Assembly: GCA_038087875.1 (NCBI GenBank)
Contig: CM075991.1
Span: forward strand, 1,426,001-1,490,000
Direction of reading: 5' to 3'
Length of the DNA stretch: 64,000 nucleotides
Source: Malacoraja senta
Taxonomy: Eukaryota
This document shows, in pieces, positions 1 through 40,940 of the stretch. Each line of letters starts with the position of its first letter. Position 1 is the first letter of the stretch. The position numbers and the translations under genes are program-made. The notes below the pieces were generated by a model. That model worked only from the letters and a program-made list of their open reading frames with translations. It was not told the DNA's origin and ran no database searches.

Positions 1-2983
1 AATAATTCATAAAATTAGAACAGATACAGGAGAATTATTAAAAATGCCCAAGGATATAAACGAGAGATTTCTCCAATACTATCATAATCTTTATTCAACT
101 AAAACTGTAGTACAACCAGAAGGAATAGCAGATTTTTTACTAAAATGTAATTTAAAAGGTTTAGACTCAAACGATAGAGAATTATTAGAAAGGGAGATTA
201 CGATAAAGGATATAGAAGAGTCTATTGGCTCTTTAAAAAATGGTAAAGCAGTAGGACCAGATGGTTTAGGCTCTGAATTCTATTAAAAAAATTATGACTT
301 GCTCTCCCCACATTTACAAAGGCTGTATGAGCATATCTATACTCAACAGAAACTTCCAGATACTTTAAATGAATCTATAATAACACTTATTCCTAAAGTT
401 GATAAAGATCCGGAAGATCCGGGATCATATAGAGCAATTGCACTTTTAAATACAGATCAGAAAATATTAACTAAAATACTAGCGCATAGATTAAGTACAG
501 TGATGAATAAATTAATACACCCTGACCAAACAGGCTTTATTCAGAAACGGTACTCATATTATAATCTAAGAAGATTATTTAATATTATATATTCTAAGAG
601 AATTATTAATGAAGATCTAGCAATAATCTCACTTGACGCTGAAAAAGCTTTTGATCAGGTTGAATGGTCCTATTTATTTTCGGTGATGGAAAATATGCAG
701 CTAGGGGAGAAATTCTGCACATGGATAAAACTGTTATATACAAACCCTACGGCTAGAATATTAACAAACCAAAGGTTGTCATCTAAATTCAGCCTATCTA
801 GAGGTTGTAGACAAGGATGCCCGTTATCTCAATTATTATTTGCGCTTGCTATTGAGCCACTCGCAGAAAGAGTTAGGGGTCATCCGGAAATACATGGGTA
901 TAACACAAAGGATACAGTGAATAAAATTTCTCTATACGCAGATGATGTACTAATTTACATTACAAAACCAGAAATTAGTATTCCAAACTTATTAAAGCTA
1001 ATAACCCAATTTGGTTCACTCTCAGGATACAGAATAAATTGGAATAAAAGTGAAATTATGCCAATAAGGGAACACAACAAACAGATAATACAACAATTTC
1101 CATTTAAAATAGTAAACGAAAAATTCAAATACCTAGGCATTTACGTAACTAAGATATATACATCATTATTTAAAGCAAATTTTCCATTACTGAACAAACT
1201 ACATAAGAATATTCAATATTGGAAAACATTTCCTATCTCAATGGTTGGCAAAATTAATGCCATAAAAATGATTTTTTACCACAAATATTATACCTTTTTC
1301 AGACAATTCCGATATATTTGTCAAAAAGCTTTAAAAAAAAATTGGATTCCATTGTTAATGATTTTATCTGGGATTATAAGAATCATAGGATAAACAAAAG
1401 ACATTTGTGTAAATCAAAAATAAATGGAGGCTTGGTTTTACCAAACTTTCTGTTTTATTTTTGGGCAGTTAATATTAAAAATATGAATTTCTGGTTGGAA
1501 GAAATAGATCAACAACCAGATTGGTTAAAAATGGAAAAGGAAGATTGTTTACCTTTTGATATCGGCTCGATATTATTTGCTACGTCTAAATTAAACAAAA
1601 ATATTTATATGGAAAACCCTATAATATTTAGTGGGATACGAATTTGGAAACAATTAAAAAAGACATTAAAATTAGATAACATCACTTTTTCTTCCAATTG
1701 TGAATAACCCTTTGTTTAAACCCTCATGGTTGGACAGGGGTTTTACACAATGGAAGAATTATGGAATTAAAAATATGGGACAACTTTACAAGGAAGGCAC
1801 TTTTCTTACATTTCAGGAGTTGCAACAGACTTATGGACTTCGAGGAAATGATTTTTTCAGATATCTTCAACTCAGAGATTATGTAAAATCGAATACTCAA
1901 AATTTTCGAATTAGAAATTCAGAAATTCTTGATGAATGTTGGAATAAACATCCTAATACAGAAAAATTAATATCTTATATATATAATATTTTATTAGACA
2001 GTGACATTCCATCGACAGACTTACACAGACAAACATGGGAAAAAGAATTAAATCAAATAATAACGAAAGATACTTGGGAAGAAAGTTTACAACACATACA
2101 TCAATGTTCATTAAATGCCAGACATTCTTTAATACAATTTAAAGTAATACATAGGTTACATTATTCAAAAACAAAATTACATAAAATCTTTCAACATATC
2201 TCACCTATATGTGATAAATGTCAACATTTAGAAGCTAACTTATCTCATATGTTTGCAAACTGTATAAAAATTAAAAAATTCTGGGTAAATATTTTCAGTA
2301 TAATATCTAAAGTGACCAGCACACAAATTGGACCCGGATCCAAAATTAATAATACTCGGAACATTAGAATTAAATCAAACATTTACAACAACATAAAGAA
2401 ACTTTATTGATTATAGTATAATAACGGGAAAAAAATTAATTCTAAAATTTTGGAAAGGCCCTATAACCCTCACAATCAAAATGTGGATTATAGAAATGAC
2501 GGAGACCTTAAATGTGGAAAGAATCAGATTTTCCCTGTTGGACAAACAGGAATTATTCGTTGGAACATGGTCTCCCTTTATTGATTATTTAAAGGGTCAG
2601 AATGGTTCAGCACAGGAACCTGACTAACACTCGGGCTAAAGAATGGATGAAATGTTATACTTTGAAATGTACGAATATATCTCGAACGAAGTTTTTTATC
2701 TTAATAAATGTTTCCATTCTTCTTTAACTATCTTTTTCTTTTCTGTTTTCTTTTTTTTTTTTGTTGTTGTTTTGTTTTGTTTTTTTCTTTCTCTTTTCTT
2801 TCTTTACTTCATCTATCTTTTTAGTTCTATCTAGTTTAAAAAAAACAAAAAAAGGCAAAAGGTATTGGAGACAATGTAATAATAATTGACAATATTATCA
2901 ATTTAAAAATGTAAGACTGGTAATGATGATAATATGTTGTGTACTTATCTCCAATAAAAAATATTTTCAAAAAAAAAAAAAAA
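1..2983 (+). mobile_element. L1-clade LINE, 3' part (ORF2 RT + C-terminal CCHC, 3'UTR, poly-A), frameshifted
   Basis: ORFs 44-286, 299-1393, 1318-1707 and 1700-2410 give GKAVGPDG, SLDAEKAFD, GCRQGCPLS, SLYADD and CDKC..HMFANC; AATAAA 2953-2958; poly-A 2969-2983; the flank resumes as at the uninterrupted paralogous site ~27605. Confidence 0.93.
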
Positions 2984-4245
2984 GAAGTTAGCATCAATTG
3001 CAATATAGTTCTCAGTAATAAAGAGGGAAGAAGGTTAGACTTTATTGCCTTCCATCACAGTGAGGCATGTGGGGAATCCGGTGTGGTGGATGTTTATGTT
3101 AATTTCTATGTAGTTGTGTGTCTTTTTTTCAGTATGGCTATATGGTAATCGAGTTTCACTGTACCTTAATTGGTACACACATGACAATAAATGACCTTTG
3201 AGCATTAAACTTTGTGAAAGGTGTAAATTTTATGGAAACTGGTACCTACAAGATCTGTGTTTATTTCCGACTTTCCTGAATCCATTTTCGTTTGTCCTGA
3301 TACCCAATGGTTTACTTAAATTGTTAACTTAAATCTATCAAACATAGGAAGGTACAGCACAGAAACAATTCCTTCAGCCCACAATGTCCTTGTGGAACAT
3401 GAGAGATTTACATGTGATCCACATCTCTCCATTTCTTGCATATCCAAGCCCCCATCTAAAAACCTTTTAAATGCCCATCGAACCCACCCATAGCAGCGCG
3501 TATCAGGCACCCACCGCTTTGTGCAAACAATTTGCCCTGTATATCTCCTCTTATATAAAAGCTATTACCTCTGGTCTCTCAAAGTTTTATATACTTCCAA
3601 TCTTTGATCGAAAGATTGAATAATCGAAGGAATGGTTTTGAAGGTGAAAGGGGAAAATTACACAAGATGTGTACATACATTTTCCACAGGGTCGTGGGTG
3701 CCTGGAGCATGCTGCCAAGGTTGGTGGTTGAGATAGATACGATGGTGGCATTTAAGAAGCGTTTGGATATGCAGGGAATAGTGCAATATGGATTATGTTT
3801 AGGTATATAAGAGAAGGTATTGACATCATGTTTGCCACAAACATTGTGGGCAGAAGAATGCGTACTTGTGCTGTACGATTCGAGATTTTATATATATTCA
3901 TAATTGTCACCATGATTTCTTTTCCTCAATATACTTTTGCTTTTCGGCATACTTTGAAACACTTGCTACTCACATTCAATGTCAGCTTTTTTGCCACACT
4001 GACATTTTTAAAGATCTTGGCCAAGTGAGCAAGCAAGATCTCACAGATTAGGTATCCACAATGATTTAACAACACTATGGTTCTAATAACATCTTTGATG
4101 ATAATTACTCCCTTATATGAATGCAAAGCATTATTAAAATAAAAAAATGAAATTATTTACTCAATAATTGAGTAAATTGATAAAAGTCAGATATGAACTA
4201 ACCTTAACTCATGAAATAATCTGTATTTTTCATCCAACATATTTG

Positions 4246-4502
4246 GGTTTGTTGAGGCACTCTCACCTCCAAATCAGAAGAAAGTGGGTTCAAGTTCTAC
4301 ACCAATGATTTAGGCATAAAATCTCGGCTGGCACTCCAGTGCATGACTGAAGGAAGTCTGCACCGTCAGAGGTGCTGTGTTTCACATGAGATATTAGACT
4401 CAGGCCCCACCTGCTCTCTCAGGTGGATGAAAATGATCGCATAGCACTATTTTGAAGAGCAGAGAGTTGTCCCCGATTTCCTGACCAATATTCCTCAATC
4501 AA
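4246..4502 (+). mobile_element. DeuSINE (SacSINE1/AmnSINE-like), degenerate
   Basis: B-box-like GGGTTCAAGT followed by Deu-domain-like GAGGTGCTGTGTTTCACATGAGA...CAGGTGGATG...ATAGCACTATTTTGAAGAG...CCTGACCAATATT. Confidence 0.7.
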
Positions 4503-4906
4503 AATTATTATAGGTGGCAGAATATTACTCACAATTATTAGCCACAGTTCTTAAATGATAACGGTAGCTATAGTTCAAAAGTATGGAAATGAGTGTAAAA
4601 GATTTCAGCAAAGTGCAAAAGTAACCAGGGAAGGAAATTGACCAGAGTTCGTTTTTCTTTGTAAGAGGAGATGCAGCCAAGTTAAGTAATGAAGAGATAT
4701 ATAATGAAGAGCAATATATGCTGGTGGGATCCTGCTTGAGAAGGCAAAAGTTTCAAACTGACGAGGAAGAGGCGTTAAACGAGGGAAGGAAGGGTGACGG
4801 GCCTTCTGTAACCTGGCCTTAATGCAGCGGCTTGATGCCCCGTCCAGGACCGCTGAGCCCGTCGACCACCAGGCCAGGAATGCCTTGTGCGCCCACTGTC
4901 TCTTAC

Positions 4907-5200
4907 CTGGTCGATTGTGGCCCCAAAGCTCCACTTGACACAGAGCTGGGGCGTCGCTACACAGGCGCGGTTCACACCGCTGTGTGTGGGAAGCGCCGCC
5001 TGCCTATACTCACACCGCTGACCCGCAACAATGCCACCCCCTGTGACGCCACTGGCCGTCAAGCAGCTGGGGGATCCCGGGCAACTACCTGCAGGAGCGC
5101 CTGTGCCCTCACCTCGACGCGTCCGCAGCCCCGCTGTCATCGTCGGCTCCCCCACAGGATGAAAGTCAATGAATCCGCACCGACAGTGTCCCCGTTGTCC
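4907..5200 (-). promoter_or_regulatory. CpG-rich candidate promoter/non-coding first exon (copy A), presumably for an ITPRIP-like gene left of the window
   Basis: GC/CpG-rich non-TE block; minus-strand donor CAG|GTAAGA at 4907/4906; near-identical to 30132-30425. Confidence 0.4.
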
Positions 5201-5919
5201 CCGCAACTCTTCCAGCTTTCTCACCACCCCATACAATTTGTATGACGGATCCCGACCTGAAACATCCCCTTATCCCTGATCTCAACAGATGGTGTCTGAC
5301 CCGCTAACTTACTCCAGCAATTTGTGTCTTTTCTATATAAACCACCATTTGCAGTTCCTTGTATCTCCCCTTGGATTTCCCTGGCAGCCCATTCCGAAAC
5401 ATTGGGCGACCATAACGACATATTAATAATATATGTCAACTGGTTCTCAGCAAATCAGTAAGATTATATAAAGGAAACCTTTAAATGATCAATGGCGTCA
5501 TTTAACTGATGTGGGCCCCGGGCGCCAACACTGGCCCGCGCCGCCTGCCCGGACACCACCAGGCCGAGTCCCTCGACGCCATCTTTGCCACGAGGAGCAG
5601 CACCAGCTCTCACCGCCTCCCTGACCGACCTCAGGCCCGGACACCGAAGATGCCGCCGTCGCCGTCCTCCACCCACCCACCCACCAATGACGCCGATCCT
5701 CGCTGCTTCACCGGTAACTCTGACTCGACGAGTCCCCGCGCGCCTCCACCATTGACGCTCCCGACTCTCGCCACTCCACCGCCCTCCTGCAGGCCGCAGC
5801 CGTCGCCTTACCGGAGTCCCAGGCTCAGCACCGGGCCTGAAGTCTCCACGCTGCAGACTCTAACATCACGGGGTCTGACTGTGCTGGGTCCTAGTGCCCG
5901 TTCCCCTGACAATGGGAAT

Positions 5920-5955
5920 CAAAGATTATAGAGCGCAGCTCCTCTAGTATCTTTG
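5920..5955. mobile_element. 36-bp palindromic micro-MITE, copy 1
   Basis: CAAAGATTATAGAGCGCAGCTCCTCTAGTATCTTTG flanked by 8-bp TSD ATGGGAAT (5912-5919/5956-5963); absent from the paralogous PLE at ~38305. Confidence 0.85.
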
Positions 5956-6039
5956 ATGGGAATCTAAGTGGTTATCCCACTGGGTCTTCCCCTTCCCCCT
6001 TAAACCATGTGACCCACAGCTCCTCCCCACCCACACTAT

Positions 6040-6075
6040 CAAAGATTATATAGCGGAGCTCCTCTAGTATCTTTG
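6040..6075. mobile_element. 36-bp palindromic micro-MITE, copy 2
   Basis: CAAAGATTATATAGCGGAGCTCCTCTAGTATCTTTG flanked by 8-bp TSD CACACTAT (6032-6039/6076-6083); absent at ~38380. Confidence 0.85.
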
Positions 6076-6159
6076 CACACTATAGTCCTCATACCCCTCC
6101 TCCCTGACCACCCAGGACCCTCCTACCAGACATCGCCTCGGCCTCCGTCCACTCACATG

Positions 6160-6514
6160 CCTTCCTCCCCCCTTACCCCCACCCCCACCATCCCCCCTTA
6201 CCCTCATCACCCCCTACCCCCACCATTCCCCCCCTACACCGACCATTCCCCCCCCACCGCCCGCCTCCACCATCCCCCCACCCCCCCTATCCCCACCCAC
6301 CCCTACCCTCACACACACCCCTCTCCTCCCACATAACCCCATCTCCCCCCACACACACACACCCCGCCCGACACACCCCGCCTGAAGCCGTCCCCGTCCA
6401 CGGTTACAGAACGCTCCCGCCATTGGGTTGGGGGAACAGGTGAGCGGTGGAATATTGCGTTGGGGGACCAGGCCTATCGTGTGACTGGGACGCAACGGGT
6501 CCCACTTAGTCTAG
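6160..6514 (+). mobile_element. Helitron 3' terminal fragment (same 3' family as 30657-37176)
   Basis: Ends GGGACGCAACGGGTCCC (hairpin)-ACTTAGTCTAG|T at 6514, then PLE resumes; matches reverse complement of 30657-30730; left boundary approximate. Confidence 0.8.
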
Positions 6515-7091
6515 TTATCTCTAACACTATCACTGGCTTCATCACTTCCGGCTCCCTGCCCTCCCAAGTCTCCAACCTCATCGTTCACCAGCCCTGCATG
6601 GCCCGATTTTACCTTTACCCCAAAATCTGCAAACCTGACTGTCCTGGCAGACCCATTTTTTCTGCTTGTTCGTGTCCCACCAAACTTATTTCCACATATG
6701 TCGTCTCCATCCTATCCCCCCTGGTTAAATCCCTCCCTACCTATGTTCAAGATACCTCACACGCTCTTCGTTTCCTCCATGACTTCCGTTTTCCCGGCCC
6801 CCATTCCCTCATCTTCACCGTGGATGTCCAGTCACTCTACACCTCCATCCCCCACCAGGAGGGTCTTAAAGCCCTCCGTTTCTTCCTTGACCGCAGGACC
6901 AACCAATCCCCGTCCACCGATACTCTCCCCGCCTTTATCTCCCCCCTCGACTCCATTCAAGGACCCAAGCTGGTCTTTACCCATAACAACTTTTTGTTTG
7001 ACTCCTCCCATTTCCTCAAAATCCAAGCTATGCCTGCCTCTTTGTAGGGTACGTCGAACAATCCTTGTTCGAGGCATACCGTGGCCCTATC

Positions 7092-8126
7092 TGTAACAAT
7101 AGGATTGTTTATTTAAGTACTGTTGTACGGGGGACGGTTTTAGAGGTGACACCGGGGCTTGCGGCCCAGTTGAAATGATGGCTGCACAAAGACAATAAAG
7201 TTCAAGTAAGCAAGACTGCTTGAATCGTCCATTATGTATGGTCAAGATAGACCAAGAACATAATGAAACATGGTGGCAGCGGTGGACGTCGGAAATTGTT
7301 AGAATTAACTAGAAAAATGAAGAGTTTGAGGATGTGTTCACCGGAGATGGCTGCATGGAGGGTGAATATAGAATAGAGATAGATGACAGAGTACCGCCAG
7401 TGAAACTGCCAAAGCGCAGAGTGCCTGTAGCTATGATGACACCTCTACAAGAGGAACTCAAAGATCTAGAGAGAAGAGGGATAATCACACCAGTGGAACG
7501 CAGCACTGACTGGATCAGTAGCATGGTCGCAGTGAGAAAACCTAATGGGAAGCTGAGGATCTGTATAGACCCAAAACCTCTGAATCGGGCACTAAAAAGA
7601 AGTCACTATCCACTCCCAACTATAGAGGACATCCTGCCAGAGATGTCAAAGGCAAAAGTATTCACAGTCTGCGACGTGAAGCAAGGCTTCTGGCACGTCA
7701 AACTAGAGGAAGAGTCGAGCTTCCTTACCACATTCGCCACCCCATTTGGTCGCTTCCGTTGGCTCAGGATGCCGATGGGAATAAGCCCAGCACCTGAAGT
7801 GTTCCAAAGAAAGCTCATGCAGGCCCTGGAGGGCCTCCCAGGAGTCTCCGTCATAGCAGAAGATGTGTTAATCACGGGGGAAGGAGCAACACAAGAGGAG
7901 GCAGGAAAGGACCACGACGAGAAAGTCAGACGCTTTCTAACCAGGTGCAGAGAGCGCAACATCAAGCTGAACGCGGGCAAATTCAAGCTCAGAAAAAAAG
8001 AGGTACCCTACATAGGTCATCTGCTCACGGCTGAGGGACTGGGGGTTGACCCGGAGAAAGTACGGGCAATCAGAGAGATGCCAAGGCCAACGGACGTGAA
8101 AGGGGTACCAAGAACATAATGAAACA
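7092..8126 (+). mobile_element. Internally deleted Gypsy LTR retrotransposon (5' LTR 7092-7270, PBS 7271-7285, RT core, last 20 bp of 3' LTR)
   Basis: TG..CA LTR; PBS TGGTGGCAGCGGTGG; ORF 7334-8119 Gypsy RT (KLRICIDPKPLN, DVKQGFWHV, RMPMGI); 5-bp TSD CTATC 7087-7091/8127-8131. Confidence 0.92.
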
Positions 8127-9240
8127 CTATCCACGAACTCTACCTCCGGTACATTGACGACTGCATTGGTGCTACCTCCTGCACCCATGCAGAACTCACT
8201 AACTTCATCCATTTCACCACTAACTTCCATCCGGCACTCAAATACGCCTGGACCATTTCCGACATCTCCCTACCGTTTCTAGACCTCACTATCTCTATTG
8301 CAGGTGACAGACTACATGTCGACATCTACTTTAAACCCACTGACTCCCATGGTTATCTGGACTACACTTCTTCCCACCCACCTTCCTGTAAAGACTCCAT
8401 CCCCTACTCCCAACTCCCAACCAATCCCCGTCTACAGATACTCTCCTCCGTCTTACGGAGCTGGTCCTTACCCTTAATAACTTTTTGTTTGACTCCTCTC
8501 ATTTCCTCCAAATTCAAGGCGTAGCTATGGGCACGCGCATGGGCCCCAGCTATGCCTGCCTCTTTGTAGGGTACGTCGAACAATCCTTGTTCGAGATGTA
8601 CCAGGGCCCCATCCTCGACCTCTACCTCCGCTACATCGACGATTGCATTGGTGCTACCTCCTGCACCCACACACAACTGACTGACTTCATCCGCTTCACC
8701 ACTAACTTCCATCCGGCACTCAAATACACCTGGACCATTTCCGACACTTCCCTACCATTTCTTGACCTCACTATCTCCATCGCAGGTGATAGGCTTCTGA
8801 GCGACATCCACTATAAACCCACTGACTCACATGGCTATCTAGACTACACTTCTTCCCACCCTGCTTCCTGTAAGGACTCCATCCCCTACTCCCAATTCCT
8901 CCGTCTACGCCGCATCTGCTCCCAGGATGAGGTGTTCCACAGCAGGGCATCGGAAATGTCCTAATTCTTCAGGGAACGGGGGTTCCTCTCCCCTACTATA
9001 GATGAGGCTCTCACCAGGGTCTCTTCAATACCCCGTAACACTGATCTCTCTCCCCACCCCCCTCCCACTCGTAACAAGGACAGAGCCCCCCTAGTCCTCA
9101 CCTTTCCCCCCATTTTCGCCACCTCCAACATAACCCCACCACTCGCCACATCTTCCCATCCCCCCCTCTGTCTGCTTTCCGCAAAGACCGCTCCCTCAGT
9201 AACTCCCTGTTCAATTCTTCTCTTCCCTTCCCACCCGTAC

Positions 9241-10116
9241 GGAATTCGGTGGGCGGCGCGACTCTCGTTTGCAGCGCCCTCTGCAGTCCGTCTGTCTTTT
9301 TATTATTTTTGTCTCGTTTTTATGTAGTTTTTTTTTTTTTTTTGTCGGGGTATGTGTGTGGTGGGGGGGGGGGTGGTGGGGGCGGGGAAACTTTAAAATC
9401 TTTCCCCTGCACGGGAGACCCGACCTTTTCTTTGTCGGGTCTCCGTTGTCGTTGGGGCTGGGCAACGTGGAGCGGCCTCCAGCAGGAACGACCTGGGGCT
9501 CCAGTTGCGGAGCTGCGGACTACTCACCGTCGCGGGGTGCTGGCCGAGTCCGGAGCGGGTGGAGCTGTGGTGGAGACAATCGCTGCTGCTACCCGACCTC
9601 CGGAGATTCGGAGGCTACAACCGCGGGTCTGGCGGATGGCAACACCGGAAACCCGCGGGTCCCCTGGTGGGAGACCGCTTTTCGGGGCTTCCGCAGCGGC
9701 GACTTCTCCTGCCCAAGTTGTGGAGTTGAAGAGCACCTGGAGCGGGGCTTTATCCCCCCGTGCGGCTTGGAATGGCCGCCGGACTTTGGCTCTAACACCA
9801 AGACCCGGTGCGCGACCCTGCATTAACCGGCGTGGCTTTAATGGCCGCGGGATAATCACAATCGCCCGCCGGGGGCTTTGACTTTGACTCTGACATCGGG
9901 GGGGGGGGGGGAGTGCAGTGGAGAGATACGTTTTTTTGCCTTCCATCACAGCGCTGTGATGGATTTTTGTGTAAATTGTGTTGTGTCTCGGGTCTTCTTC
10001 GTTTTGTAATGTATGGCTGCAGAAACGACATTTCGTTTGGACCTCAACGGGGTCCAAATGACAAATTTGTCCAAAAGACAAATAAATAGTATTGTAAATT
10101 GTATTGTAATTGTATT
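9241..10116 (+). mobile_element. Non-coding non-autonomous retroposon (~880 bp) with (ATTGT)n tail
   Basis: Interrupts PLE at ACCCGTAC|CACCCC with GTAC duplicated; GC head, T tract, G run, AATAAA then ATTGT repeats. Confidence 0.75.
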
Positions 10117-10731
10117 GTACCACCCCCTCCCCGGGCACTTTCCCTTGCAACCGCAAGAGATGCTACACTTGTCGCTTTATCTCCCCCCTCGACTCCATTC
10201 AAGGACCCAAGCAGTCGTTACAGGTATGACAGAGGTTCACCTGCATCTCCTCCAACCTCATCTATTGCATCCGCTGCTCTAGATGTCAGCTGATCTACAT
10301 CGGTGAGACCAAGCGTAGGCTTGCCGATCGTTTCGCCGAACACCTCCGCTCATTAACCAACCTGATCTCCTTGTGGCTCAGCACTCCATCTACCCCTCCC
10401 ATTCCGAATCCGACCTTTCTGTCCTGGGCCTCCTCCATGGCCAGAGTGAGCACCACTGGAAATTGGAGGAGCAGCACCTCATATTCTGCTTGGGCAGTTT
10501 GCACCCTAGCGCCTTAAACATTGACCTGCAATTTCTGGTAGCCCTTGCTGTCTCCTCCCCTTCTCAGCTCTCCCACAGCCCTCTGGCTCCTCCTCTTCCT
10601 TTCTCCTTTCTTCTCCCCCCCCCCACCCTACATCAGTCTGAAGAAGGGTTTCGGCCCGAAACGTTGCCTAATTCCTTCGCTCCATAGATGCTGCTGCACC
10701 CGCTGAGTTTCTCCAGCACTTTTGTCTTCCT
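10117..10731 (+). mobile_element. Penelope-like 3' region (GIY-YIG remnants, hammerhead-like end)
   Basis: IYCIRCS..IYIGETKR remnants; LEEQHLIF; CTGAAGAAGGGTTTCGGCCCGAAACG. Confidence 0.85.
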
Positions 10732-13325: not shown

Positions 13326-16300
13326 AGATATAGAAAATAGGTGCAGGAGGAGGCCATTCGGCCCTTCGAGCCAGCACCGCCATTCATTGTGATCATGGCT
13401 GATCGTCCCCTATCAATAACCCGTGCCTGCCTTCTCCCCATATCCCTTGACTCCACTAGCCCCTAGAGCTCTATCTAACTCTCTCTTAAATCCATCCAGT
13501 GATTTGGCCTCCACTGCCCTCTGTGGCAGGGAATTCAATAAATTCACAACTCTCTCGGTGAACAATTTTTTTCTAACCTCAGTCTTAAATGACCTCCCCT
13601 TTATTCTAAGACTATGGCCACTGGTTCTGGACACCCAACATTGGGAACATTTTTCCTGCATCTAGCTTGTCCAGTCCTTTTATAATTTTATATGTTTCTA
13701 TAAGATATCCCCTCATCCTTCTAAACTCCAATGAATACAAGCCTAGTCTTTTCAATCTTTCCTCATATGACAGTCCCGCCATCCCAGGGATCAATCTTGT
13801 GAACCCACGCTGCACTGCCTCAATCACAAGGATGTCCTTCCTCAAATTAGACCATAACTGTACACAATACTCCAGAAGTGGTCTCACCAGAGCCCTATAC
13901 AATTGCAGAAGAACCTCTTTACTCCTATACTGAAACCCTCTTGTTATGAAGGCCAACATTCCATTAGCTTTCTTCACTGCCTGCTGTACCTGCACGCCAA
14001 CTTTCAGTGACCGGTGTACAAGGACACCCAGGTCTCGCTGTACCTCCCCCTTACCTAACCTAACCCCATTGAGATAATAATCTGCCCCCTTGTTTTTGCC
14101 GCCAAAGTGGATAACCTCACATTTATCTATATTATACTGCATCTGCCACGCATCTGCCCACTCACTCAGCTTGTCCATGTCACCCTGCAACCTCCTAACA
14201 TCCTCTTCACAGTTCACACTGCCACCCAACTTTGTGTCATCCGCAAGCTTGCTAGTGTTGTTCCTAATTTCCTCTTCCAAATCATTAATATATATGGTAA
14301 ACAGTTGTGGCCCCAACACCGAGCCTTGCGGCACTCCACTCGCCACTGCCTGCCATTCTGAAAAGGGCCCGTTCACTCCTACTCTTTGCTTCCGGTCTGC
14401 CAACCAATTTTCTATCCATGTCAACACCCTACCCCCAATACCATGTGCTCTAATTTTAGTCAATAGTCTCCCGTGCGGGACCTTATCAAAGGCTTTCTGA
14501 AAGTCTAGATACATTACATCCACTGGCACCCCTTCATCCATTTTACTTGTCACATCCTCAAAAAATTCCAGAAGATTAGTCAAGCATGATTTCCCTTTGA
14601 TAAATCCATGTTGACTTGGACTAATCCTTTTACTGCTATCCAAATGCCCCATTATTACCTCTTTAATAATTGACTCCAGCATCTTTCCAACCAATGAAGT
14701 CAGGCTAACTGGTCTGTAATTCCCCCTTTTCTCTCTTGCTCCTTTCTTGAAAAGTGGGATAACATTAGCTATCCTCCAATCCACAGGAACTGATCCTGAA
14801 TCTATTGAACATTGGAAAATGATCACCAATGCGTCCACTATTTCTAGAGCCACCTCCCTGAGGTCCCTGGGATGCAGACCATCAGGCCCAGGGGATTTAT
14901 TATCCTTCAGTCCCATTAGCCTACCCAATACTATTTCTCACCTAATGAAAATTGCTTTCAGTTCCTCTACCCCCTTAGATCCTCTGTCCTCCAGTACATC
15001 TGGGAGATTGTTTGTGTCTTCCTTAGTGAAGACAGATCCGAAGTACCTATTCAACTCTTCTGCCATTTCCTTGCTGCCCATAATAATTTCACCCGTGTCT
15101 GCCTTCAAGGGACCCACATTTGACTTTGCTACTCTTTTTCCCTTAACATATCTAAAGACGATTTTACTGTCCTTCTTTATATTCCTGGCCAGCTTCCCCT
15201 CGTACTTCATCTTTTCAGCCCGTATTGCCCGTTTTGTTTCCTTCTGTTGTCCTGTGAGCATTTCCCAATCCTCTGGCTTCTGGCTACTCTTTGCTCTGTT
15301 ATACATCTTTTCTTTTAGTTTTATTCTAGCCCTAACTTCTCTTGTCAGCCACGGTTGCCTCCTACTCCCCTTAGAATCTTTCTTCATTTTTGGAATGAAA
15401 TGATCCTGCGTCTTCCGGATTATGCCCAGAAATTCCTGCCATTGCTGTTCCACCGTCATTCCTGCTAGGATCCCTTTCCAGTCTACTTTGGCCAGCTCCC
15501 CTCCCATGCCTGCATAGTCCCCTTTGTTCAACTGCATCACTGCCACTTCCGATTTAACGTTCTCCTCAAATTGCAGATTAAAACTAATCATATTATGATC
15601 ACTACCTCCAAGCGGTTCCTTTACCTCACGTTCTCTTATCATATCTGGTTCATTGGACAACACTAAATGCAGAATTGCGTTTTCTCTGGTCGGCTCCATT
15701 ACAAGCTGCTCTAAGAATCCATCTCGGAGGCATTCTACAAACTCTCTTTCTTGGGGTCCTGAACCAACCTGATTTTCCCAGTCTACCTACATATTGAAAT
15801 CCCCCATCACCAACGTGGCATTACCTTTGTTACATGCCAGTTTTAACTCCTGCTGCAACTTACAACCTACATCCGGGCTACTATTTGGGGGTCTCTAAAT
15901 ATCACCAATTAGTGTCTTCTTGCCTTTACAATTCCTCAACTCAATCCACAGTGACTCTACCTCGTCAGTCCCTGTCTTCCCTCGCAAGGGACTGAATTCC
16001 CTCCCTCACCAGCAGAGCTACCCCCCCTCCTCTGCCCACCTGCCTGTCCTTTCTATAGGATGTATAACCCTGAATATTAAGTTCCCAGGCTGGATCCTCC
16101 TGGAGCCACGTCTCAGTGATCCGCACAATGTCATATCCACCAACCTCTAACTGAGCCTCAAGCTCATCTACTTTACTCCTTATACTTCGCGCATTCATAT
16201 ACAATACTTTTAATTCCTTACGCATCTCACCTTTCACATCGATCCCTATTACACTTGGCCATACTCTCCTATCCCTTTGTGAGCTTCCTTTCCCGTTAAT

Positions 16301-16715
16301 TCTGGGGTCATTAACCATCCCTTTACTCTCTTTCCCTTTAACTCAATTTTCGACTATCCCATTTGACACCCCCCCTCCCTTATTCAGTTTAAAACCACCC
16401 GTGTAGCAGTGGCAAACCTGGCTGCCAGAATGCTGGTCCCCCACCTGTTAAGATGCAATCCGTCCCTTTTGTACAGTTCCCCCTTACTCCAAAACAGATC
16501 CCAGTGATCTAAGAATCTAAATCCCTGCCCCCTGCACCAGTTCCTCAGCCACACATTCAGGTCCCGTATCTCCCTGTTCCTGCTCTCGCCAGCACGAGGA
16601 ACTGGAAGCAAACCGGAGATAACAACCCTGGAGGTCCTGCTTTTCAGCATGTTTCCGAGCTCTCTAAAGTCACGCTGCAGAATATTTATCCCCTTCTTTC
16701 CGACATCGTTTGCGC
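13326..16715 (-). mobile_element. CR1 LINE, near full-length ORF2 plus ORF1 SGNH-esterase 3' part, disabled
   Basis: ORF 13612-14928 RT ([25 protein letters not shown]); 14938-16318 APE endonuclease pieces; 16384-16650 SGNH-like (DGLHLN); CR1 3' tail. Confidence 0.93.
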
Positions 16716-16719
16716 GACA

Positions 16720-17205
16720 TGGGGCTCAAAATCGATCACAATACTCTAAATGCGGTCTGACCAGTGCATAATAAAATCTCAGCATTACGTACATCCGTTT
16801 TATATTCTAGTTCTCTCGAAACGAATGCAAGAATTGCTTTTGCCTTCCCTACCACCGATTCGACTTGCAAATTAGTTTTGGAAATCCTGTACCAGGACTC
16901 CCAAGTCTCTTTGCACTTCTGATTTCTGAATTCTCTCCCCGTTTAGAAAATAATCTATTATTATTTCTTTATTCCTACTGCCAAAATGCATGACTCCACA
17001 CTGTGTTACACTGTATTACCATCTGCCACTTATTTCACCACTCTTCCAACCTGTTCAAGTCCTTCTACAGTAGGTCCTATACTACCTGCCCCTGGACCAA
17101 TCTTCATATCAACTGCAAACTTGACCACAAAGCCTTCAATTCCTTCATTCCATCAACTAACTCACGGATATACAACGTGAAGAGTAACATCCCCAGCACC
17201 TACCA
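16720..17205 (-). mobile_element. Older CR1 RT fragment
   Basis: Degenerate reverse-complement RT motifs (tcatatcaactgcaaacttg, accaggactcccaagtctct). Confidence 0.6.
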
Positions 17206-18501: not shown

Positions 18502-20115
18502 TCACTCAGCTGTTGTATTAGTCTTAATGCACTCACTCATCAGGGGTCCCATGTCTCTTAATATTTTCTGATATTCCATGAGTGCCCGACAGTAAGATTC
18601 ATTTCCTGTTACAAATGATGGGAAGAGATTTATAGGTTCTGCTTTCAGAAGAAATTCTGGAATTCCAATTTGTTGAGGAAATGTTTGATTTCCAATCATA
18701 AATCTGTGTAGGCATTTCTCATCCAAACATTTCCCAAGATACTTTAACACATCTCTGAGCCGATGTTCCAGGTGACATTCCTGCCAGTTTGAATACGGCT
18801 GACTTAATAGCAAATGCATCAGGACAGTCTTAAAGATATAGGAGCCAAGAACACATCGCTGGTCTGGTGAATGGCACACTCTTTCAGTCAGAACGATCAG
18901 TATTTGAAGGCACTTGAGGTGACAGGAGCTTTTGGGGATATTCTTGGTCATGATTTTGAGAAACCTGTACTCACAGACAGCACAGGAAATGTGCCAGTAG
19001 ATAGTGGGTACTGTACTTTTCTTGGGGAAATTGGAAAACGAGGTACAAGATGGACATCGGAACCCTTCAGCCTCACAGCAGGAATGATTTTGATGTGAAT
19101 AGTTCGTCCTGACTGATATTGTACTTTTAAACCACAGCAACCAGTAATATTACGGAAGGTAATTTCCAAATTCATTTTGATCACAAATTTTCTTCCATGA
19201 TTTGGATAATAAAACCCTGAACCATTTCACTACCTTCTTATAATCCAAATAACAATCGGAATCCATGATAGAAGCAAGACCATTGGAATGAACATCATGT
19301 TTGAATCCTTTGTTGTGAATAAGACAAAGAATGTCCCCTTCAGGTTCTTTGGTTTCACATTGGCTAGCCAGGTTAGCGTTGTTTGCTGTAACCATGAGAA
19401 TCCTGCTGAAACTCTGTTTCTCACGTGGGACGTCACAGGAACAGATTTCTGGTTTAAAACAATAACCATTCTGGAGAAAAATTGGAACCAAAATATAATA
19501 TACGGATGGTATCTTACAGCTCCAATTTTCAAACTGACTCCCAATGCCCACACAGTCATCGAGGATCAGCTCTGAGCTCCACGGACAAAGATTCCGACCA
19601 GCTTCTAAAAGACTGTCCACAAACATTTTACAAATTTACTGGTCTCAATTGGTCTTGGCTCCCATTTTGAATGCAGATGTTGTAGAACTGATCCAACACA
19701 TTTTGATCAGGGCTATTCAAAATATTGTTGTGATGAGGTCTTCGAGGAACTTCATCTTGCATTTCTTCCTGCTCTTCCTCATTATCATAGTCTTGGGATT
19801 ATTTGCAAAATGTCACCTCTTCAGTCCCAAGATCTGAATTATGACCAGTATGAGCGTAATATAGGTGTTCCAGTACTTTTTTGGTGAATCTTCCCTATCT
19901 GCAGATAAATGGATCTTTATATTAGTCTGATAGTTACTTTTTCCCTCCATTTTGTTCTGGAGCCATTCTATCTGCTGTTGGTACGGGTACTCATGTTCCT
20001 TAATTCTATTCTGGACCTCTTCTGTCTCCACTTCATCACTCAGGAGGCGGGGATGGTACAAGCTCCCTGTGATCATCAGAACACACACGTTGAAAAGCTT
20101 TATCGCAGTTGTCAT
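18502..20115 (-). pseudogene. ITPRIP/ITPRIPL-like (Mab-21 fold) copy 1, at least three frameshifts
   Basis: ORFs 19813-20115, 19150-19626, 18948-19184 and 18502-19140 are colinear with the 531-aa ORF; frame breaks at ~19825, ~19175 and ~19035; acceptor TTTATAG|GATG. Confidence 0.85.
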
Positions 20116-26060: not shown

Positions 26061-29000
26061 ATCCCATCTGTTGCCGCAGAAACCCGTCTGTACCTCTCAC
26101 AATGGAGTCTCCCACTACAATGGCGTTGCCTGACGTCGGCCTCTTTGGTTTTGGCTCAACAGCACTTTTTGCTTCTCAAGCTAGTCCGCCGCTCAGTGTG
26201 TTAACGTCTTCTGTCCTGACAGCTTCTAAGTGAGTGAACCTGTTCATAAGAGGTACAACACCCGGGGACCTTTGCATTCCATGTTTCCTTCCCTTTCTCA
26301 CCGTCACCCACCTTCTCTCTTCCAGTACCTTAGGTGTAACAATCTTACTGTAGGACTTGTCGAGGAACGACTGTTTCTTGGACGAACCTGAGGTCATCCA
26401 CTTGCTTCTCCAGTTCCCCAACACGGTCCTTCAGGAGCTCTACCTGGATGCACTTCTCACATTTGTAGCAGCCAGAGGCACCAGCGGTGTCCTTGACCTC
26501 CCACATCCTGCAAGCATCACACTGAATTAGCTTGCTTGACATCTCCTTCTTTCGTCTCTCCCCCTCCAGCGTTTGGTGTGGCGTCCTCCCTCAACCTCCT
26601 CGCCGAAGAATCGCAGCCGAAGACTCGCACTTTTCTCACAGGGCACTTCCCTCGACAGGGCCGCACCCCTTGAGCAAGTCTTGCTTATATCAGATGCTAA
26701 ATTGCCGAATTGCCCAATTTACCAATCTTCCAAACTAATTGTTCAGCCAATCCCCGCACTCACTCCTAATCTTCCTTCCTCTGATGAGCTTGGAAGTATG
26801 TGCTTTGTCCGACCTGCACTCAAAGACTTCTAAAGTGCCTTTTGCACCCTTTTATACCTGCTCTACCTGTGACTCACCAAGTCCAGCCAACGGTCGTGTC
26901 TGAAGAAGGGTTTCGGCCCGAAACGTTACCTATTTCCTTCGCTCCATAGATGCTGCTGCACCCGCTGAGTTTCTCCAGCATTTTTGTGTACCTTCGGTCG
27001 TTCTCACTGCTGCTTTGTCCGACCTGCTCTCAAACTCTTAGAATTATTTCCCAGGGAAAAATATACCTCACCATTTCTTCCACAGATGCTGCCTGACCGG
27101 CTGAGGTACTCCTGTACTTTGTGTTTTACTTAAGGTTCCAGCATCTGCAGTGCCTTGTGTCTCCATTCTACTACCTCGCCATCTAACATGGTTCTGATCT
27201 ATAAAGTTTAAAATGTGACCTTTTTCTCTCCAATCTCTCTGGCAGAAACAAATATTGGCAGAAACGTTATCTTTATCTTCGTAATCAAATCTCTCCTTAA
27301 CACTGAGCCTTAAGAAGGAAGAATGAAGAGAAGCACAAATAAATGGCATATGTGTAGTGAAATAAACCCATGAACCTATGTCTAAATGTTTAAGAAGGAA
27401 CTGCAGACACTGGAAAATCAAAGGGATCGAAAAATGCTGGAGAAACTCAGCGATGAGGCAGCATCTATGGAGCGAAGGAAATAGGCAACGTTTCGGGCCG
27501 AAACCCTTCTTCAGACAACGTATGTCTAAATATTTGTTTCAAAAAAGCTTTGGTAAATCTTAGTTTTTTTATCAGAGGAACAAAGTCCAAAAAATAGGTC
27601 ACAGTAAGAAGTTAGCCTCAATGTAGTTCTCAGCAATAAAGAGGTTAGACTTTATTGCCTTCCATCACAGTGAGGAATGTGGGGAATCCGCTGTGGTGGA
27701 TGTTTATGTTAATTTCTATGTAGTTGTGTGTCTTTTGTTGCTTTTTTTAGTATGGCTGTATGGTAATCGAGTTTCACTGTAGCTTAATTGGTACACACGT
27801 GACAATAAATGACATTTGAAACCTTTGAGCATTAAACTTTGTGAAAGGTGTAAATTCTATGGAAAATGGTACCTACAAGATCCGTGATTATTTCCGACTT
27901 TCCAGAATCCATTTTTGTTTGTCCTGATACCCAATGGTTTACTAAAATTGTTAACTTAAATCTATGAATCTATCTGTACAGCACAGAAACAGGTCCTTCT
28001 GCCCACAATGTCCGTGTGGAACATGAGAGATCTACATGTGATCCACATCTCTCCATTTCTTGCATGTCCAAGCCCCCATCTAAAAACCTTTTAAATGCCC
28101 ATCGAACCCACCCATAGCAGCGCGTATCAGGCACCCACCGCTTTGTGCAAACAATTTGCCCTGTATATCTCCACTTATATAAAGCTATTACCTCTGGTCT
28201 CTCAAAGTTTTATGTACTTCTAATCTTTGGTCGAAAGAATGAATAATCGAAGGAATGGTTTTGAAGGTGAAAGGGGAAAAGGGGAGAAGATGTGTACATA
28301 CATTTTCCAGGGGTGGTGGGTGCCTGGAGCGTGCTGCCAGGGTTGGTGTTGAGATAGATATGATGATGGCATTTAAGAGGCGTTTGGATAGGCAGGGAAT
28401 AGTGCAATATGGATTATGTGTATGTATATAAGAGAAAGTATTGACATCATATTTGCCACAAATATTGTGGGAAGAAGAATGCGTACTTGTGCTGTATGTT
28501 TCTAGGTTTTATCTATATTCATAATTGTCACCCCATGATTGTTTTTCCTCAATATACTTTGGACTTTTCGGCATACTTGGTCCTCCATACTTTGAAACAC
28601 TTGCTACTCACATCCAATGTCAGCTTTTTTGCCACTGACATTTTTAAAGATCTTGGCCAAGTGAGCAAGCAAGATCTCACAGATTAGGTATCCACAATGA
28701 TTTAACAACATTATGGTACTAATAACATCTTTGATGAGAATTACTCCCTTATTTGAATGCAAAGCATTATTAAAATTAAAAAATGAAATTATTTTCACTT
28801 TCTCAATAATTGAGTAAATTGATAAATGTCAGATATGAACTAACCTTAACTCATGAAACAATCTGCATTTTTCATCCAACATATTTAACATTAAGTTCAC
28901 AGGCCTGTCATTGATTCTAATATTCCTTTTTTGGCTTAATTCACCATGCTTTTCATCAATTACCCTCAACTACATTCTATCATGTTACAGATCATCTATT

Positions 29001-29436
29001 TTGTTCCTGCCCATCCACTACCCCACCACCTCACTTTCTCTGCACAGTAGGTTCTCTAACTTTTACACAATTCATATATTTCTTTAGTCATAGATGAGGC
29101 CAAATGTGTTTGTATGTCAGCAATTTTTCAATTTCAGATTTTTAACGAATGTTGTTTTGGAATTGGTGGGTAACACACGCTTAAAAGGTACATTGACGAA
29201 AAGATGTGTTCCAAAACATTTGGGAGGAACACATGCATATTATACGTAAATAATGTATTCTTGAAAATAAGAATGTAGGAGAGAAGCATGTCACGAGTAG
29301 GAAGAAACTGAGGAAAAGTAAATATTTAAAGAGGAAGAATTTGAGTGTCTGTAAGTACATTGATCACATTGCCAAGGATTGTGTGTTTTACCTTGGTTAA
29401 ATAATACATCTGCTTGGGTATATCCTGTATCGTTAG

Positions 29437-29720
29437 GGTTTGTTGAGGCACTCTCACCTCTAAATCAGAAGAAAGTGGGTTCAAGTTCTACACCAATGAT
29501 TTAGGCATAAAATCTCGGCTGGCACTCCAGTGCATGACTGAAGGAAGTCTGCACCGTCAGAGGTGCTGTGTTTCACATGAGATATTAGACGGAGGCCCCA
29601 CCTGCTCTCTCAGGTGGATGAAAAGGATCCCATAGCACTATTTTGAAGAGCAGAGAGTTGTCCCCGATTTCCTGACCAATATTTATTCCGCGATCAACAA
29701 TGTTAAAATTCCTCAATCAA
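29437..29720 (+). mobile_element. DeuSINE, duplicated copy of 4246-4502
   Basis: Same Deu-domain-like sequence (AAAGGATCCCATAGCACTATTTTGAAGAG). Confidence 0.7.
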
Positions 29721-30131
29721 AATTATTATACGTGGCAGAATATTACTCACAAATTAGTCGCGGTTCTTAAATGATAACAGTAACTATAGTTCAAAAGTAT
29801 GGAAATAAGTGTAAAAGATTTCAGCAAAGTGCAACAGTAACCCGGGAAGGAAATTGACCAGAGTTCGTTTTTCTTTGTAAGAGATGCAGCCAAGTTAAGT
29901 AATGAAGAGATATATAATGAAGAGCAATATATTTAATGAAACATGCTGGAGGGATCCTGATTGAGAAGGCAAAAGTTTCAAACTGACGAGGAAGAGGCGT
30001 TAAACGAGGGAAGGAAGGGTGACGGACCTTCTGTAACCTGGCCTTACTGCAGCGGCTTGATGCCGCGTCCAGGGCCGCTGAGCCCGTCGACCACCAGGCC
30101 AGGAATGCCTTGTGTGCCCACTGTCTCTTAC

Positions 30132-30425
30132 CTGGTCGATTGTGGCCCCAAAGCTCCACTTGACACAGAGCTGGGGCGTCGCTACACAGGCGCGGTTCAC
30201 ACCGCTGTGTGTGGGAAGCGCCGCCTGCCTATACTCACACCGCTGACCCGCAACAATGCTACCCCCTGTGACGCCACTGGCCGTCAAGCAGCTGGGGGAT
30301 CCCGGGCAACTACCTGCAGGAGCGCCTGTGCCCTCAACTCGACGCGTCCGCAGCCCCGCTGTCATCGTCGGCTCCCCCACAGGATGAAAGTCAATGAATC
30401 CGCACCGACAGTGTCCCCGTTGTCC
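30132..30425 (-). promoter_or_regulatory. CpG-rich candidate promoter/non-coding first exon (copy B) for ITPRIP-like copy 1
   Basis: Donor CAG|GTAAGA at 30132/30131; correct strand and side to splice to the acceptor at 20116. Confidence 0.42.
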
Positions 30426-30867
30426 CCGCAACTCTTCCAGCTTTCTCACCACCCCATACAATTTGTATGACGGATCCCGACCTGAAACATCCCCTTATCC
30501 CTGATCTCAAAAGATGGTGTCTGACCCGCTAACTTACTCCAGCAATTTGTGTCTTTTCCATATAAACCACCATTTGCAGTTCCTTGTATCTCCCCTTGGA
30601 TTTCCCTGGCAGCCCATTCCGAAACATTGGGCGACCATAAGGTCATATTAATAATACTAGACTAAGTGGGACCCGTTGGGTTCCAGCTTCACACGGGAGG
30701 GCTGGTCCCCAATGCAATATTCCACCTCTCCACCAATTCCAATATTACTGGCCAGTGAGGGGGGGGGGAGGATGGGGGTCTTTCTGGAGCGCTAGTATGT
30801 GTTGTGGGTCAAAGGGACTGGTTTCCAGAGGGCTAGTATACATTGTGGGCCGAATGGATTCTTGGGC

Positions 30868-31212: not shown

Positions 31213-31599
31213 CCCCTCCTCCCTTCACCCCCCCTCTGCTCCATGCCATTCCCTCCCCCGCACGCATTCAGTCCATCTCCCCTCAACCTCCCCCCCCCAT
31301 GCACTCTTAGTGGCTCTCCGACAGCGCAACCATTCCTGCCTATTAGACGCAGGCATGGCAAGTGGAAAAAGGATTTATTAAAGTTTAAAATGTAAATGAC
31401 TTAAAATATAACAACAATTTAAATCTTAAAGATGAGATTTATTAAGTTCTTTCTTGTGTCTCTTGCTGTGTTCTGCTGCTCATTCCCTCTTGGTAACACT
31501 TTGCTGTTGATATAAAAAAATATAAATTTTAATATAGAGAGATTAAGCGGTCACATTTTAACAAAGAAAATCTGAGAATTTACCTCAAAAGTCATCATG

Positions 31600-37669: not shown

Positions 37670-40600
37670 ATCTTCGGGCCTCACTCACCCAGCTCTACTT
37701 CATCCAACGGCAGATCCGCACCTTCAATCAACGATTCCTGGCAGACTTGGACTCCACCATGGACCTTAAACTTGCCCACCTCCAGGCCGCTCCTGCCACC
37801 GACACTCTGCGACTCGACCGCCTGTAGGCCCCAGGCCCTAACACCTGCCCTAACGCCTGCCCGGACACCACCAGGCCGAGTCCCGCGATGCCATATTTGC
37901 ATCGAGGAGCAGCACCAGCACTCACTGCCTCCCTGACCGACCTCAGGCCAGGACACCGAAGATGCCGCCATCGCCGATCTTTACCCACCCACCAATGACG
38001 CCGATCCTTGCTACCTCCTCGGCTCCTCCGACTATCGGCACCAAAACGGGCCCGTTGAACCTCGCCGCCTCACTGGCCATCCGCTGACCGAAACCTCCTA
38101 CGCTTCGCCCGCTGACCCCGGACTCCACTCCCCGGGAGCCTTTACCATTGACTCTACCGACCCTCGCCACTACGCCCTCCAGCAGGCCGCAGCCGTCGCC
38201 TTACCTGAGTCCCAGGTTCAGCACCGGGCCTGAAGTCTCCACGCTGCAGACTAACATCACGGGGTCTGACTGCGCTGGGTCCTAGTGCTCGTCCCCCTGA
38301 CACAGGGAACCTCAGTGGTTATTCCACTGGGTTTTCCCCTTCCCCCTTAAACCATGTGACCTCAACTCCTCCCCACCCACACTATAGTCCTCATACCCTC
38401 TCCTCCCTGACCACCCACCACACCCCCTACCAGACATCGCCTCAGCCTCCGTCCACTCACCTGCCTCCCCCCGGCCCCAACCCCCATCGTTGCCGTGTGT
38501 TCACCATCCCCCCTGACCTCCCCCTCTCTGATACCGAACAGTCTGTTTTCAGCAGAGGCCTCACCTTTGTTCCCCTCCATCCCCACCTCAATGAGTTCCG
38601 CGTCCGCCACGATGTGGAGCTCTTCTATCGCCTCCGCCTCAAAGTGTTCTTCCATGGGAAGGAGTCCTCAACCCCCAGTGATAACCCCTTCTTCAGTCTC
38701 CAACGGATCCTCGCTTATTGGACACCCCCTCATGGCCATCTACCGGCTTTAGACCATTTTATTTTAAACTGCCAGGGGCAGCAACCCAGACTGGGTGATC
38801 AATCCTGCCGACAAGGGAGGTGCCGTGGTAGTCGGCCGCACTGATCTCTACAAGTCTGAGGCCATGCGCTAACTCTCAGACACCTCCTCCTACTTATCCT
38901 TGGACCATGAACCCACAGACGAGCACAGGCCATTATCTTTAACTCACTGGCTTCATCACTTCCGGCTCCCTGCCCTCCCAAGCCTCCAAACTCATCATTC
39001 CACAGCCCCGCATGGCTCGATTTTACCTTCTCCCGAAAATCCACAAACCTGACTATCCTGGCAGACCCATTGGTTCTGCTTGTTCGTGTCCCATTGAACT
39101 TATTTCCACATACCACGACTCCATCCTATCCCCCCTGGTTAAATCCTTCCCTACCTATGTTCAAGACACCTCACACGCTCTTCGTCTCCTCCATTTCCAG
39201 GCCCCCATTCCCTCATCTTCACCATGGATGTCCAGTCACTCTACACCTCCATCCCCCACCAGGAGGGTCTTAAGGCCCTCCATTTCTTCTTCGACCGCAG
39301 AACCATCCAATCCCCGTCTACCGATACTCTCCTCCGCCTAGTCCTTCCCCTTAACAACTTTTCATTTGACTCCTCCCATTTCCTCCAAATCAAAGGCGTA
39401 GCTATGGGCACGTGCATGGGCCCAAGCTATGGGCCCTGCCTCTTTGTAGGATACGTCGAACAATCCTTGTTCGAGGCGTAACGTGGCTTTATCCCCGAAC
39501 TCTACATCCGCTACATCGACAACTGCATTGGTGCTACCTCCTGCACCCATGCAGAACTCACTAACTTCATCCATTTCACCACTAACTTCCATCCGGCACT
39601 CAAATGCACCTGGACCATTTCCGACAACTCCCTACTGTTTCTAGACATAGAAACATAGACATAGAAAATAGGTGCAGCAGGAGGCCATTCGGCCCCTCGA
39701 GCCAGTACCGCCATTCATTGTGATCATGGCTGATCGTCCCCTATCAATAACCCGTGCCTGCCTTCTCCCCATATCCCTTGACTCCACTAGCCCCTAGAGC
39801 TATAGAAACATAGAAAATAGACCTCACTACATCGCAGGTAACAGACTACTGACCGATATCTACTATAAACCCATTGACTCCCATGGCTATCTGGACAACA
39901 CTTCTTCCCACCCTGCTTCCTGTAACAACTCCATTCCCTACTCTCAATGCCTCCGTCTATGCCGCATCTGCACCCACGATGAGGTGTTCCAAACCAGGGC
40001 ATCTGAGATGTCCTCATTCTTTAGGGAACGGGGGTTCCCCTCTTCTACTATAGGTGAGGTTCTCACCGGGGTCTCTTCTATACCCGGTAACTCTGCTCTC
40101 ACTCCCCATCCCCCCACTTGTAACAAGGGCAGAGTCCCCCTTGTCCTCACTTTCCACCCTACCAACCGTCACATACAACAGATAATCCTCCGACATTTTC
40201 GCTACCTCCAACAGGATCCCACCACTGGCCACATCTTCCCATCTTCTCCCCTTTCAGCTTTCCGCAGAGACTGCTCCCTCCGTAACTCCCTGGACAATTC
40301 GTCCCTTCCCACCCAATCCATCCACTTTCCTGGTACTTTCCATTGCAACTGCAGGAAAGCTACACTTGTTGCTTTACCTCCCCCCTTGACTCCATCCAAG
40401 GACCTAAGCAGTCTTTCCGGGTGCGGCAGAGGTTCACCTGCACCTCTTCCAACCTCATCTATAGCATCCGCTGCTCTGGGTGTCAGCTGCTCTACATCGG
40501 TGAGACCAAGCGTAGGCTTGGCGATCGCTTCGCCCAACACCTCCGCTCGGTTCGTAATAACCAACCTGATCTCCCGGTGGCTCAGCAGTTCAACTTCCAC

Positions 40601-40940
40601 CCCCATTTCGACTCTGACCTTTCTGTCTTGGGCGTTCTCCATGGCCAGAGTGAGGATCACTGTAAATTGGAGGAGCAGCACCTCATATTTCGCTTGAGTA
40701 GTTTACACCCCAGCGTTAAGAACATTGACCTCCAATTTCAGGTAGTCCCTGCTTTCTCCCTCTTTCCCCTCCCTTTCCCAGCTCTCCCACAGCCCACTCT
40801 CTGCCTCTTCCTTTCTTCTTCTCGCCCCCCCCCCACCCCCACATCAGTCTGAAGAAGGGTCTCGACCCAAAACGTCGCCTTTTTCCTTCTCTCCATAGAT
40901 GCTGCCTCACCCGCTGAGTTTCTCCAGCATTTTTGTCTAC
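37670..40940 (+). mobile_element. Penelope-like element, near-complete but degenerate (RT + GIY-YIG), with short CR1 tail insertion ~39646-39817
   Basis: ORFs 38356-39481 RT; 40343-40852 IYSIRCSGCQLLYIGETKRRLGDRFAQH (GIY-YIG). Confidence 0.92.

Follow-up and report, generated by a model that had tools for sequence, protein, structure and literature searches.

Two 36-nt inserts with 8-nt target-site duplications in a Penelope-like element of a cartilaginous fish: probable excision footprints of a P-type transposon

The transposase of the Drosophila P element cuts each element end with a 17-nt stagger, and after excision the donor site retains 17-nt tails of the element ends (PMC7776569, PMC10983969). 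The enzyme contacts the 31-bp terminal inverted repeat (TIR) in its inner half, and 10-bp sites located further in (PMC7776569). Repaired donor sites from Rad51-mutant flies are listed in Table 1 of PMC2895639; these 66 sites are built of duplication, tail, filler, tail and duplication, and their joints include 17+2+16 (three isolates) and 16+2+17 (one isolate). A recount of this table yields 28 of 66 joints with 30-37 nt between intact duplications, 30 of 66 with at least 14 nt of both tails and one with exactly 36 nt; two random draws would give the same joint in about 10% of cases. Local hopping of the fly element spans 50-150 kb (PMC7776569). P-type elements with 8-bp duplications also exist in fish (PMC10983969, PMC2820524), and the zebrafish section of PMC10983969 reports larger flanking deletions and not 17-nt tails.

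Among the fish elements, Izanagi from medaka is a non-autonomous element of 1,316 bp; its TIRs measure 27 bp and its duplications 8 bp, and it carries THAP exons (PMC2820524). It is termed a P element in PMC6825717 as well. At the small end of the size scale, MITEs range from 80 to 500 bp (PMC2642840), and the smallest mobile ones described have 78-80 bp (PMC2642840, PMC5224488). DNA bending is costly below 90 bp (PMC2642840, PMC5224488); it has also been argued that transposase-induced bending removes the size limit (PMC2642840). MITEs of the P superfamily from Anopheles have 8-bp duplications, measure 205 bp or more if their names are taken as lengths, and retain about 100 nt from either end of the parent element (PMC1562414).

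In a window of 64 kb, which is the whole stretch of DNA analysed here, two 36-nt inserts with 8-nt duplications were found within a decayed Penelope-like retroelement. The inserts and their target sites are as follows.

5912..5919, plus strand: left copy of target-site duplication 1, ATGGGAAT; the duplicate unit (~38303-38310) has one copy of this site with 3 of 8 letters different
5920..5955, no strand assigned: insert 1, 36 nt, with left arm 5920-5936, central AG 5937-5938 and right arm 5939-5955; probably an excision footprint
5956..5963, plus strand: right copy of target-site duplication 1, ATGGGAAT, in agreement with the left copy
6032..6039, plus strand: left copy of target-site duplication 2, CACACTAT; the duplicate unit has one identical copy
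6040..6075, no strand assigned: insert 2, 36 nt, with orientation and junction as in insert 1, from which it differs at positions 12 and 17
6076..6083, plus strand: right copy of target-site duplication 2, CACACTAT

The inserts are identical at 34 of 36 positions (G/T at position 12, C/G at position 17), have their starts 120 nt apart and agree in orientation, length and junction. Each is surrounded by a perfect 8-nt direct repeat and carries perfectly inverted ends of 7 nt, which were reached by chance in only 23 and 16 of 200,000 shuffles, respectively. A scan of the 64 kb for perfect 8-nt repeats around inserts of 20-70 nt with inverted ends of at least 7 nt returned only these two, and the same scan returned nothing in 40 locally shuffled windows. 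A relaxed version gave five hits outside 31400-37200, compared to 2.6 expected in whole shuffled windows, and the three extra hits look like chance. For insert 1 alone, the boundary can also be read as 9+35; it was set at 8+36 because of the symmetry of the ends and because of copy 2. The two arms align as one imperfect repeat, and in copy 2 both reach GAGCT at the centre when compared by eye; positions 18-21 of the 36-mer are the self-complementary AGCT. Hairpin folding is modest, with z at -2.95 in copy 1 and at -0.75 in copy 2. The remaining 63.8 kb of the window contain no third copy of the 36-mer, which points to a local event and not to a dense background. Both copies, with their duplications, lie within 172 nt, and the chance of two random points falling within 120 nt in 64 kb is about 0.4%.

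When the window was compared with itself, a tandem duplication emerged whose collinear blocks extend from 2982 to ~22000 (unit A; 22011) and from 27606 to ~47800 (unit B; 47822). In each unit, the Penelope-like element begins at the same flank.

5510..10727, plus strand: host of the inserts, the decayed Penelope-like retroelement of unit A, with reverse transcriptase-like pieces followed by a GIY-YIG endonuclease (10230-10514); later insertions interrupt it, and its ends are approximate
37823..40938, plus strand: the same Penelope-like insertion in unit B, with both empty target sites (~38300-38390) and the GIY-YIG endonuclease at 40286-40849

When unit A is aligned with 38240-38450, each insert appears as a clean gap of 44 nt (36+8), and unit B has a single copy of each target site. 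With the inserts taken out, the nearby sequences of the units agree at 321 of 355 positions. Unit B represents a true pre-insertion allele, because the same Penelope-like insertion sits in the second tandem unit, and the absence of both inserts from unit B indicates that they were gained in unit A after the tandem duplication. Thus, unit A received two insertions with these ends after the duplication, at sites 76 nt apart, and 8 nt were duplicated each time. The low divergence of the inserts (2/36) and the identity of their duplications at 16 of 16 positions fit such an age. As both unit-A copies of target site 1 agree, the three changes relative to unit B either predate the insertion or arose in unit B. 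An earlier note on this DNA had described two near-identical 36-mers with 2 differences, each with its own perfect 8-bp duplication, and had stated that both are absent from a paralogous Penelope copy at ~38300-38390. The coordinates and the window scan bear out the former, and the two 44-nt gaps the latter, with the qualification that the empty copy is the same insertion in a second tandem unit and not merely a paralogue. A DNA-transposon origin in two separate insertion events and a local link between the inserts, both proposed in that note, are likewise supported, the local link by the ~0.4% chance of such closeness. The term palindromic is correct for the outer 7 nt and overstated beyond them, as seen from the z values.

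Outside the inserts, the flanks of the units (2982-5516 and 27606-37262) are 94-98% identical, and the Penelope-like and ITPRIP-like parts 86-90%. This contrast may reflect gene conversion or a faster decay of GC-rich DNA. The ITPRIP-like (Mab-21) gene of the duplicated unit is open over 547 aa in one copy (44017-45660, minus strand) and split by a stop in the other (18502-19635, minus strand); the best relatives of the 547-aa frame come from a skate (78%), followed by a catshark (69%) and a ray (66%), which identifies the host as a cartilaginous fish. An insertion of 6.5 kb at 30656-37176 is found in unit B only and consists mostly of tandem arrays with periods of 40, 8-10, 32/18 and 31 nt.

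The assignment of the inserts to a transposon family depends on their ends. Duplications of 8 nt and CA...TG termini follow the pattern of the P superfamily; hAT elements have both, too. The 8-bp duplication with a YARNG terminus also follows the hAT pattern, and YARNG termini are assigned to P in PMC2820524 and, together with 8-bp duplications, to hAT in PMC3014272. As YARNG is given for each of them, five terminal letters cannot separate P from hAT. The P-family descriptions in PMC4168063 and PMC3698922, in the parts available, give target duplications of 7-9 bp and do not mention footprints. The target sites do not decide between the families either: the T at position 2 or the A at position 7 of the duplication is found in 3 of 4 checks, and the target consensus sequences of Ac, hobo and P all contain this T and A (PMC2577343). 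The 14-bp palindromic target motif of Drosophila P is matched at 6/14 and 5/14 positions, values that are reached by 22% and 42% of 348 local sites, for a weak motif and n=2.

The ends of Izanagi are more informative. The right arm of the inserts, read inward, and the 27-nt Izanagi TIR have an exact block of 10 nt, ACTAGAGGAG, in common, a match reached in 216 and 268 of 200,000 shuffles (~0.1%). This block is located at 5939-5948 in insert 1 and at 6059-6068 in insert 2, which are the only exact 10-mers of this TIR in the window. An end-anchored score against Izanagi was reached by 1 (left arm of copy 2) and 7 (right arm) of the 2,454 CAA-starting 19-mers of the window, a set that includes the arms of the inserts themselves; the left arm of copy 1 fits only moderately, with a score reached by 72 of the 2,454. 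This was a comparison after the fact, and Izanagi is one of three published P-type ends available for it. The inserts resemble Izanagi in their 8-bp duplications, their CAA-starting ends and the shared block. They differ from it in size, in the other letters of the first 14 and in the position of the block, which occupies positions 8-17 in the inserts and positions 15-24 in Izanagi and is thus 7 nt nearer to the end here. Because the test was post hoc and the block is shifted by 7 nt, the support from Izanagi is only fair; in addition, the P label of Izanagi rests on its THAP exons and not on a transposase. A P-type source of the inserts is therefore a fair, not a firm, assignment from the sequence. 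The earlier note had derived a P-type source from the CAAAG ends, which on their own do not discriminate; the preference for P over hAT stands on account of the Izanagi-like ends. In zebrafish, Pdre2/THAP9 belongs to the P superfamily and has 8-bp duplications, and the TIRs of Pdre2 are short (13 bp) and start with CA, but their letters differ from those of the inserts (PMC10983969).

Taken together, the inserts are probably the footprints of two excisions of a longer P-type element with Izanagi-like ends, left behind after a local hop, a reading to which we assign a probability of roughly 0.6. They resemble the Drosophila end-joining products of PMC2895639 in having an 8-nt duplication on both sides and, presumably, two element ends of about 17 nt each that meet head to head. 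The Drosophila products were induced in repair-mutant flies and have varied junctions, whereas the inserts are natural, occur in a cartilaginous fish, show the same joint twice and have imperfect arms and no known parent. The intact 8-nt duplications flank the inserts, the empty allele lacks them, and their length is about twice that of a cleavage tail, within the 30-37-nt class. The footprint reading is favoured because size and build match the donor-site joints of Drosophila P and because the ends are Izanagi-like. It is further favoured because a 36-nt unit would, after two 17-nt staggered cuts, be reduced to a duplex of 2 bp and offers the transposase no space to bind, the 36-mer having neither the inner half of the TIR nor the internal 10-bp sites bound by the Drosophila enzyme, and because the smallest mobile MITEs in the papers cited above have 78-80 bp and bending is costly below 90 bp. 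The absence of a third copy from the window and the existence of P-type elements with 8-bp duplications in fish also speak for it. The inserts are a real feature and most likely a natural example of a known by-product.

The insertions are read directly from the alignment with unit B; the cut, the repair and the hop we infer by analogy to Drosophila. According to this chemistry, long-stagger cuts would leave the donor chromosome with 3' tails, each made of about 17-21 nt from one terminus, and the two tails would be sealed by end joining. Three readings of the 36 nt are open to this model: 17+AG+17, 19+19 with annealing through AG/CT, and 21+19 with annealing through the AGCT of positions 18-21; in the last case, annealing would make one joint dominant. 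A local hop between the two sites, followed by a second exit, would produce two scars, and the second joint may be a copy of the first that was made during gap repair. Such scars are predicted to be immobile and functionless.

Several observations weigh against footprints. Length and junction are the same twice, for which the fly table suggests a chance of about 10% and which a mobile unit would predict outright, although microhomology or copying from the neighbour might account for it. The 17-nt stagger is demonstrated for Drosophila, and the zebrafish section mentioned above describes no such tails. Fly P hops over 50-150 kb compared to 76 nt here, and the target sites match the Drosophila P motif no better than the local background. 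The left arm of copy 1 fits Izanagi only moderately in a post hoc comparison, and neither a parent nor a P-type transposase was found in the window or the collections searched. Finally, if the Izanagi block marks the inner part of the TIR, the 36-mer would consist of two whole short TIRs and resemble a minimal MITE.

This last point would add weight to the view of the earlier note that the 36-mer is itself a cut-and-paste unit. In that case it would be composed of two short TIRs that abut and belong to a P family with Izanagi-like ends; a transposase with a shorter stagger would mobilize it in trans, and it would have been copied, or would have hopped, locally. That both copies agree in length, junction and orientation would follow directly, and the block in common with Izanagi stops at the junction, as though an entire TIR made up each arm. 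The 36-mer also has the MITE traits of being short and non-coding, with TIRs and a target duplication. MITEs that consist of TIRs only exist: MADE1 is composed of two 36-37-bp repeats with a 6-bp spacer (PMC5224488), and MADE1/MiHsmar1 resemble the inserts in having two terminal repeats and almost no interior (PMC5224488, PMC2642840). However, these elements are more than twice as long (78-80 bp), belong to the mariner family, use a TA target and have near-perfect repeats and thousands of copies. With 36 nt, the inserts have less than half the length of the smallest mobile MITEs described, are below the 80-500-bp range that leaves room for transposase binding, and have no further copy in 64 kb; the Anopheles P-MITEs retain far longer ends, and the size of the inserts coincides with the known class of scars. 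The size limit could be lifted by transposase-induced bending, as argued in PMC2642840. On balance, mobility of the 36-mer is unlikely and this claim of the earlier note is probably wrong, since the match is to P donor-site scars and Drosophila-type chemistry would not excise a duplex. Were it nevertheless correct, the 36-mer would be the smallest eukaryotic cut-and-paste unit so far, requiring a vertebrate P-type transposase with stagger and end recognition different from those of Drosophila, and it might be a scar that stayed mobile; we regard this as a doubtful prospect.

Ranking after mobility, and unlikely as well, is an origin of the inserts as extreme internal-deletion relics of a hAT element, or of another element with 8-bp duplications, formed when gap repair was aborted at two insertions close to each other and without long cleavage tails. 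Excision of hAT elements produces hairpins on the flank and leaves no element ends, so that only coincidence would account for two identical relics of 36 nt. The duplications and YARNG termini described above would suit a hAT element, and the T and A of the target sites agree with Ac and hobo, but they are equally part of the P consensus, and the resemblance of the ends is to an element with THAP exons. A hAT-type relic with DUF659 is present in the window (55950-57260; DUF659 at 56047-56754); it was rejected as a parent, as its ends are different and match neither arm. By far the least probable is an origin without any transposon, whether through an artefact of sequencing or assembly, through a hairpin RNA that was retroposed, or through slippage. 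It could be invoked since the data come from a single assembled sequence and the host region is rich in retroelements. The copies differ at two positions, however, both duplications have exactly 8 nt, and the ends are fixed and inverted; a BLAST search of 72,556 plasmids and 50,697 phages, collections with little vertebrate DNA, gave no match to the insert, and neither an Rfam match nor a local template in the window was found.

The search for a parent element covered the window and several sequence collections. Within the window, with up to four mismatches allowed, neither arm occurs again as a plausible end. Of the 57 long and 149 shorter open reading frames, 35 and 111, respectively, were scanned and gave no hit to a P-type protein family, and a scan of 393 open reading frames gave no THAP-like pattern. 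The joined two-arm pattern had no match in viral, metagenome and prokaryote genome contigs, and the 19-nt left arm had none in the viral contigs, all of which contain little vertebrate DNA. The 17-nt right arm had 40 metagenome and 5 viral matches; these are attributed to chance, because none of the 45 has the left arm upstream together with a matching duplication.

If the inserts are scars, they would be a fossil read-out of transposase chemistry, in which the retained end length would point to a vertebrate P-type enzyme with a Drosophila-like long stagger, and a P-type element would have moved in a cartilaginous fish after the tandem duplication. They would also call for caution, since 'micro-MITEs' of 30-40 nt with 8-nt duplications can be scars. 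If the unit were mobile instead, the smallest size known among cut-and-paste elements would fall by half. A limited literature search found no report of natural P footprints in vertebrates, which is weak evidence of novelty.

The Penelope-like host is itself part of a region with further mobile elements. Its stretch 6515-7093 has a match (79%, covering 29% of the query) in P0057, a skate protein that contains RVT_1, and a search with part of the Penelope frame of unit B returned no relatives. An RT-bearing fragment (RVT_1) at 7092-8128, inserted in the unit-A element, is presumably Gypsy-like, judging by its motifs. On the 5' side of the unit-B element, the letters at ~37265-37295 are similar to what we take to be a minimal hammerhead ribozyme core; this stretch is missing from unit A and, like the rest of the window, gave no Rfam match at gathering scores. 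A LINE at 13330-17000 contains a GDSL-esterase-like frame (16387-16725), an endonuclease and an RT, and several more copies of it are present in the window.
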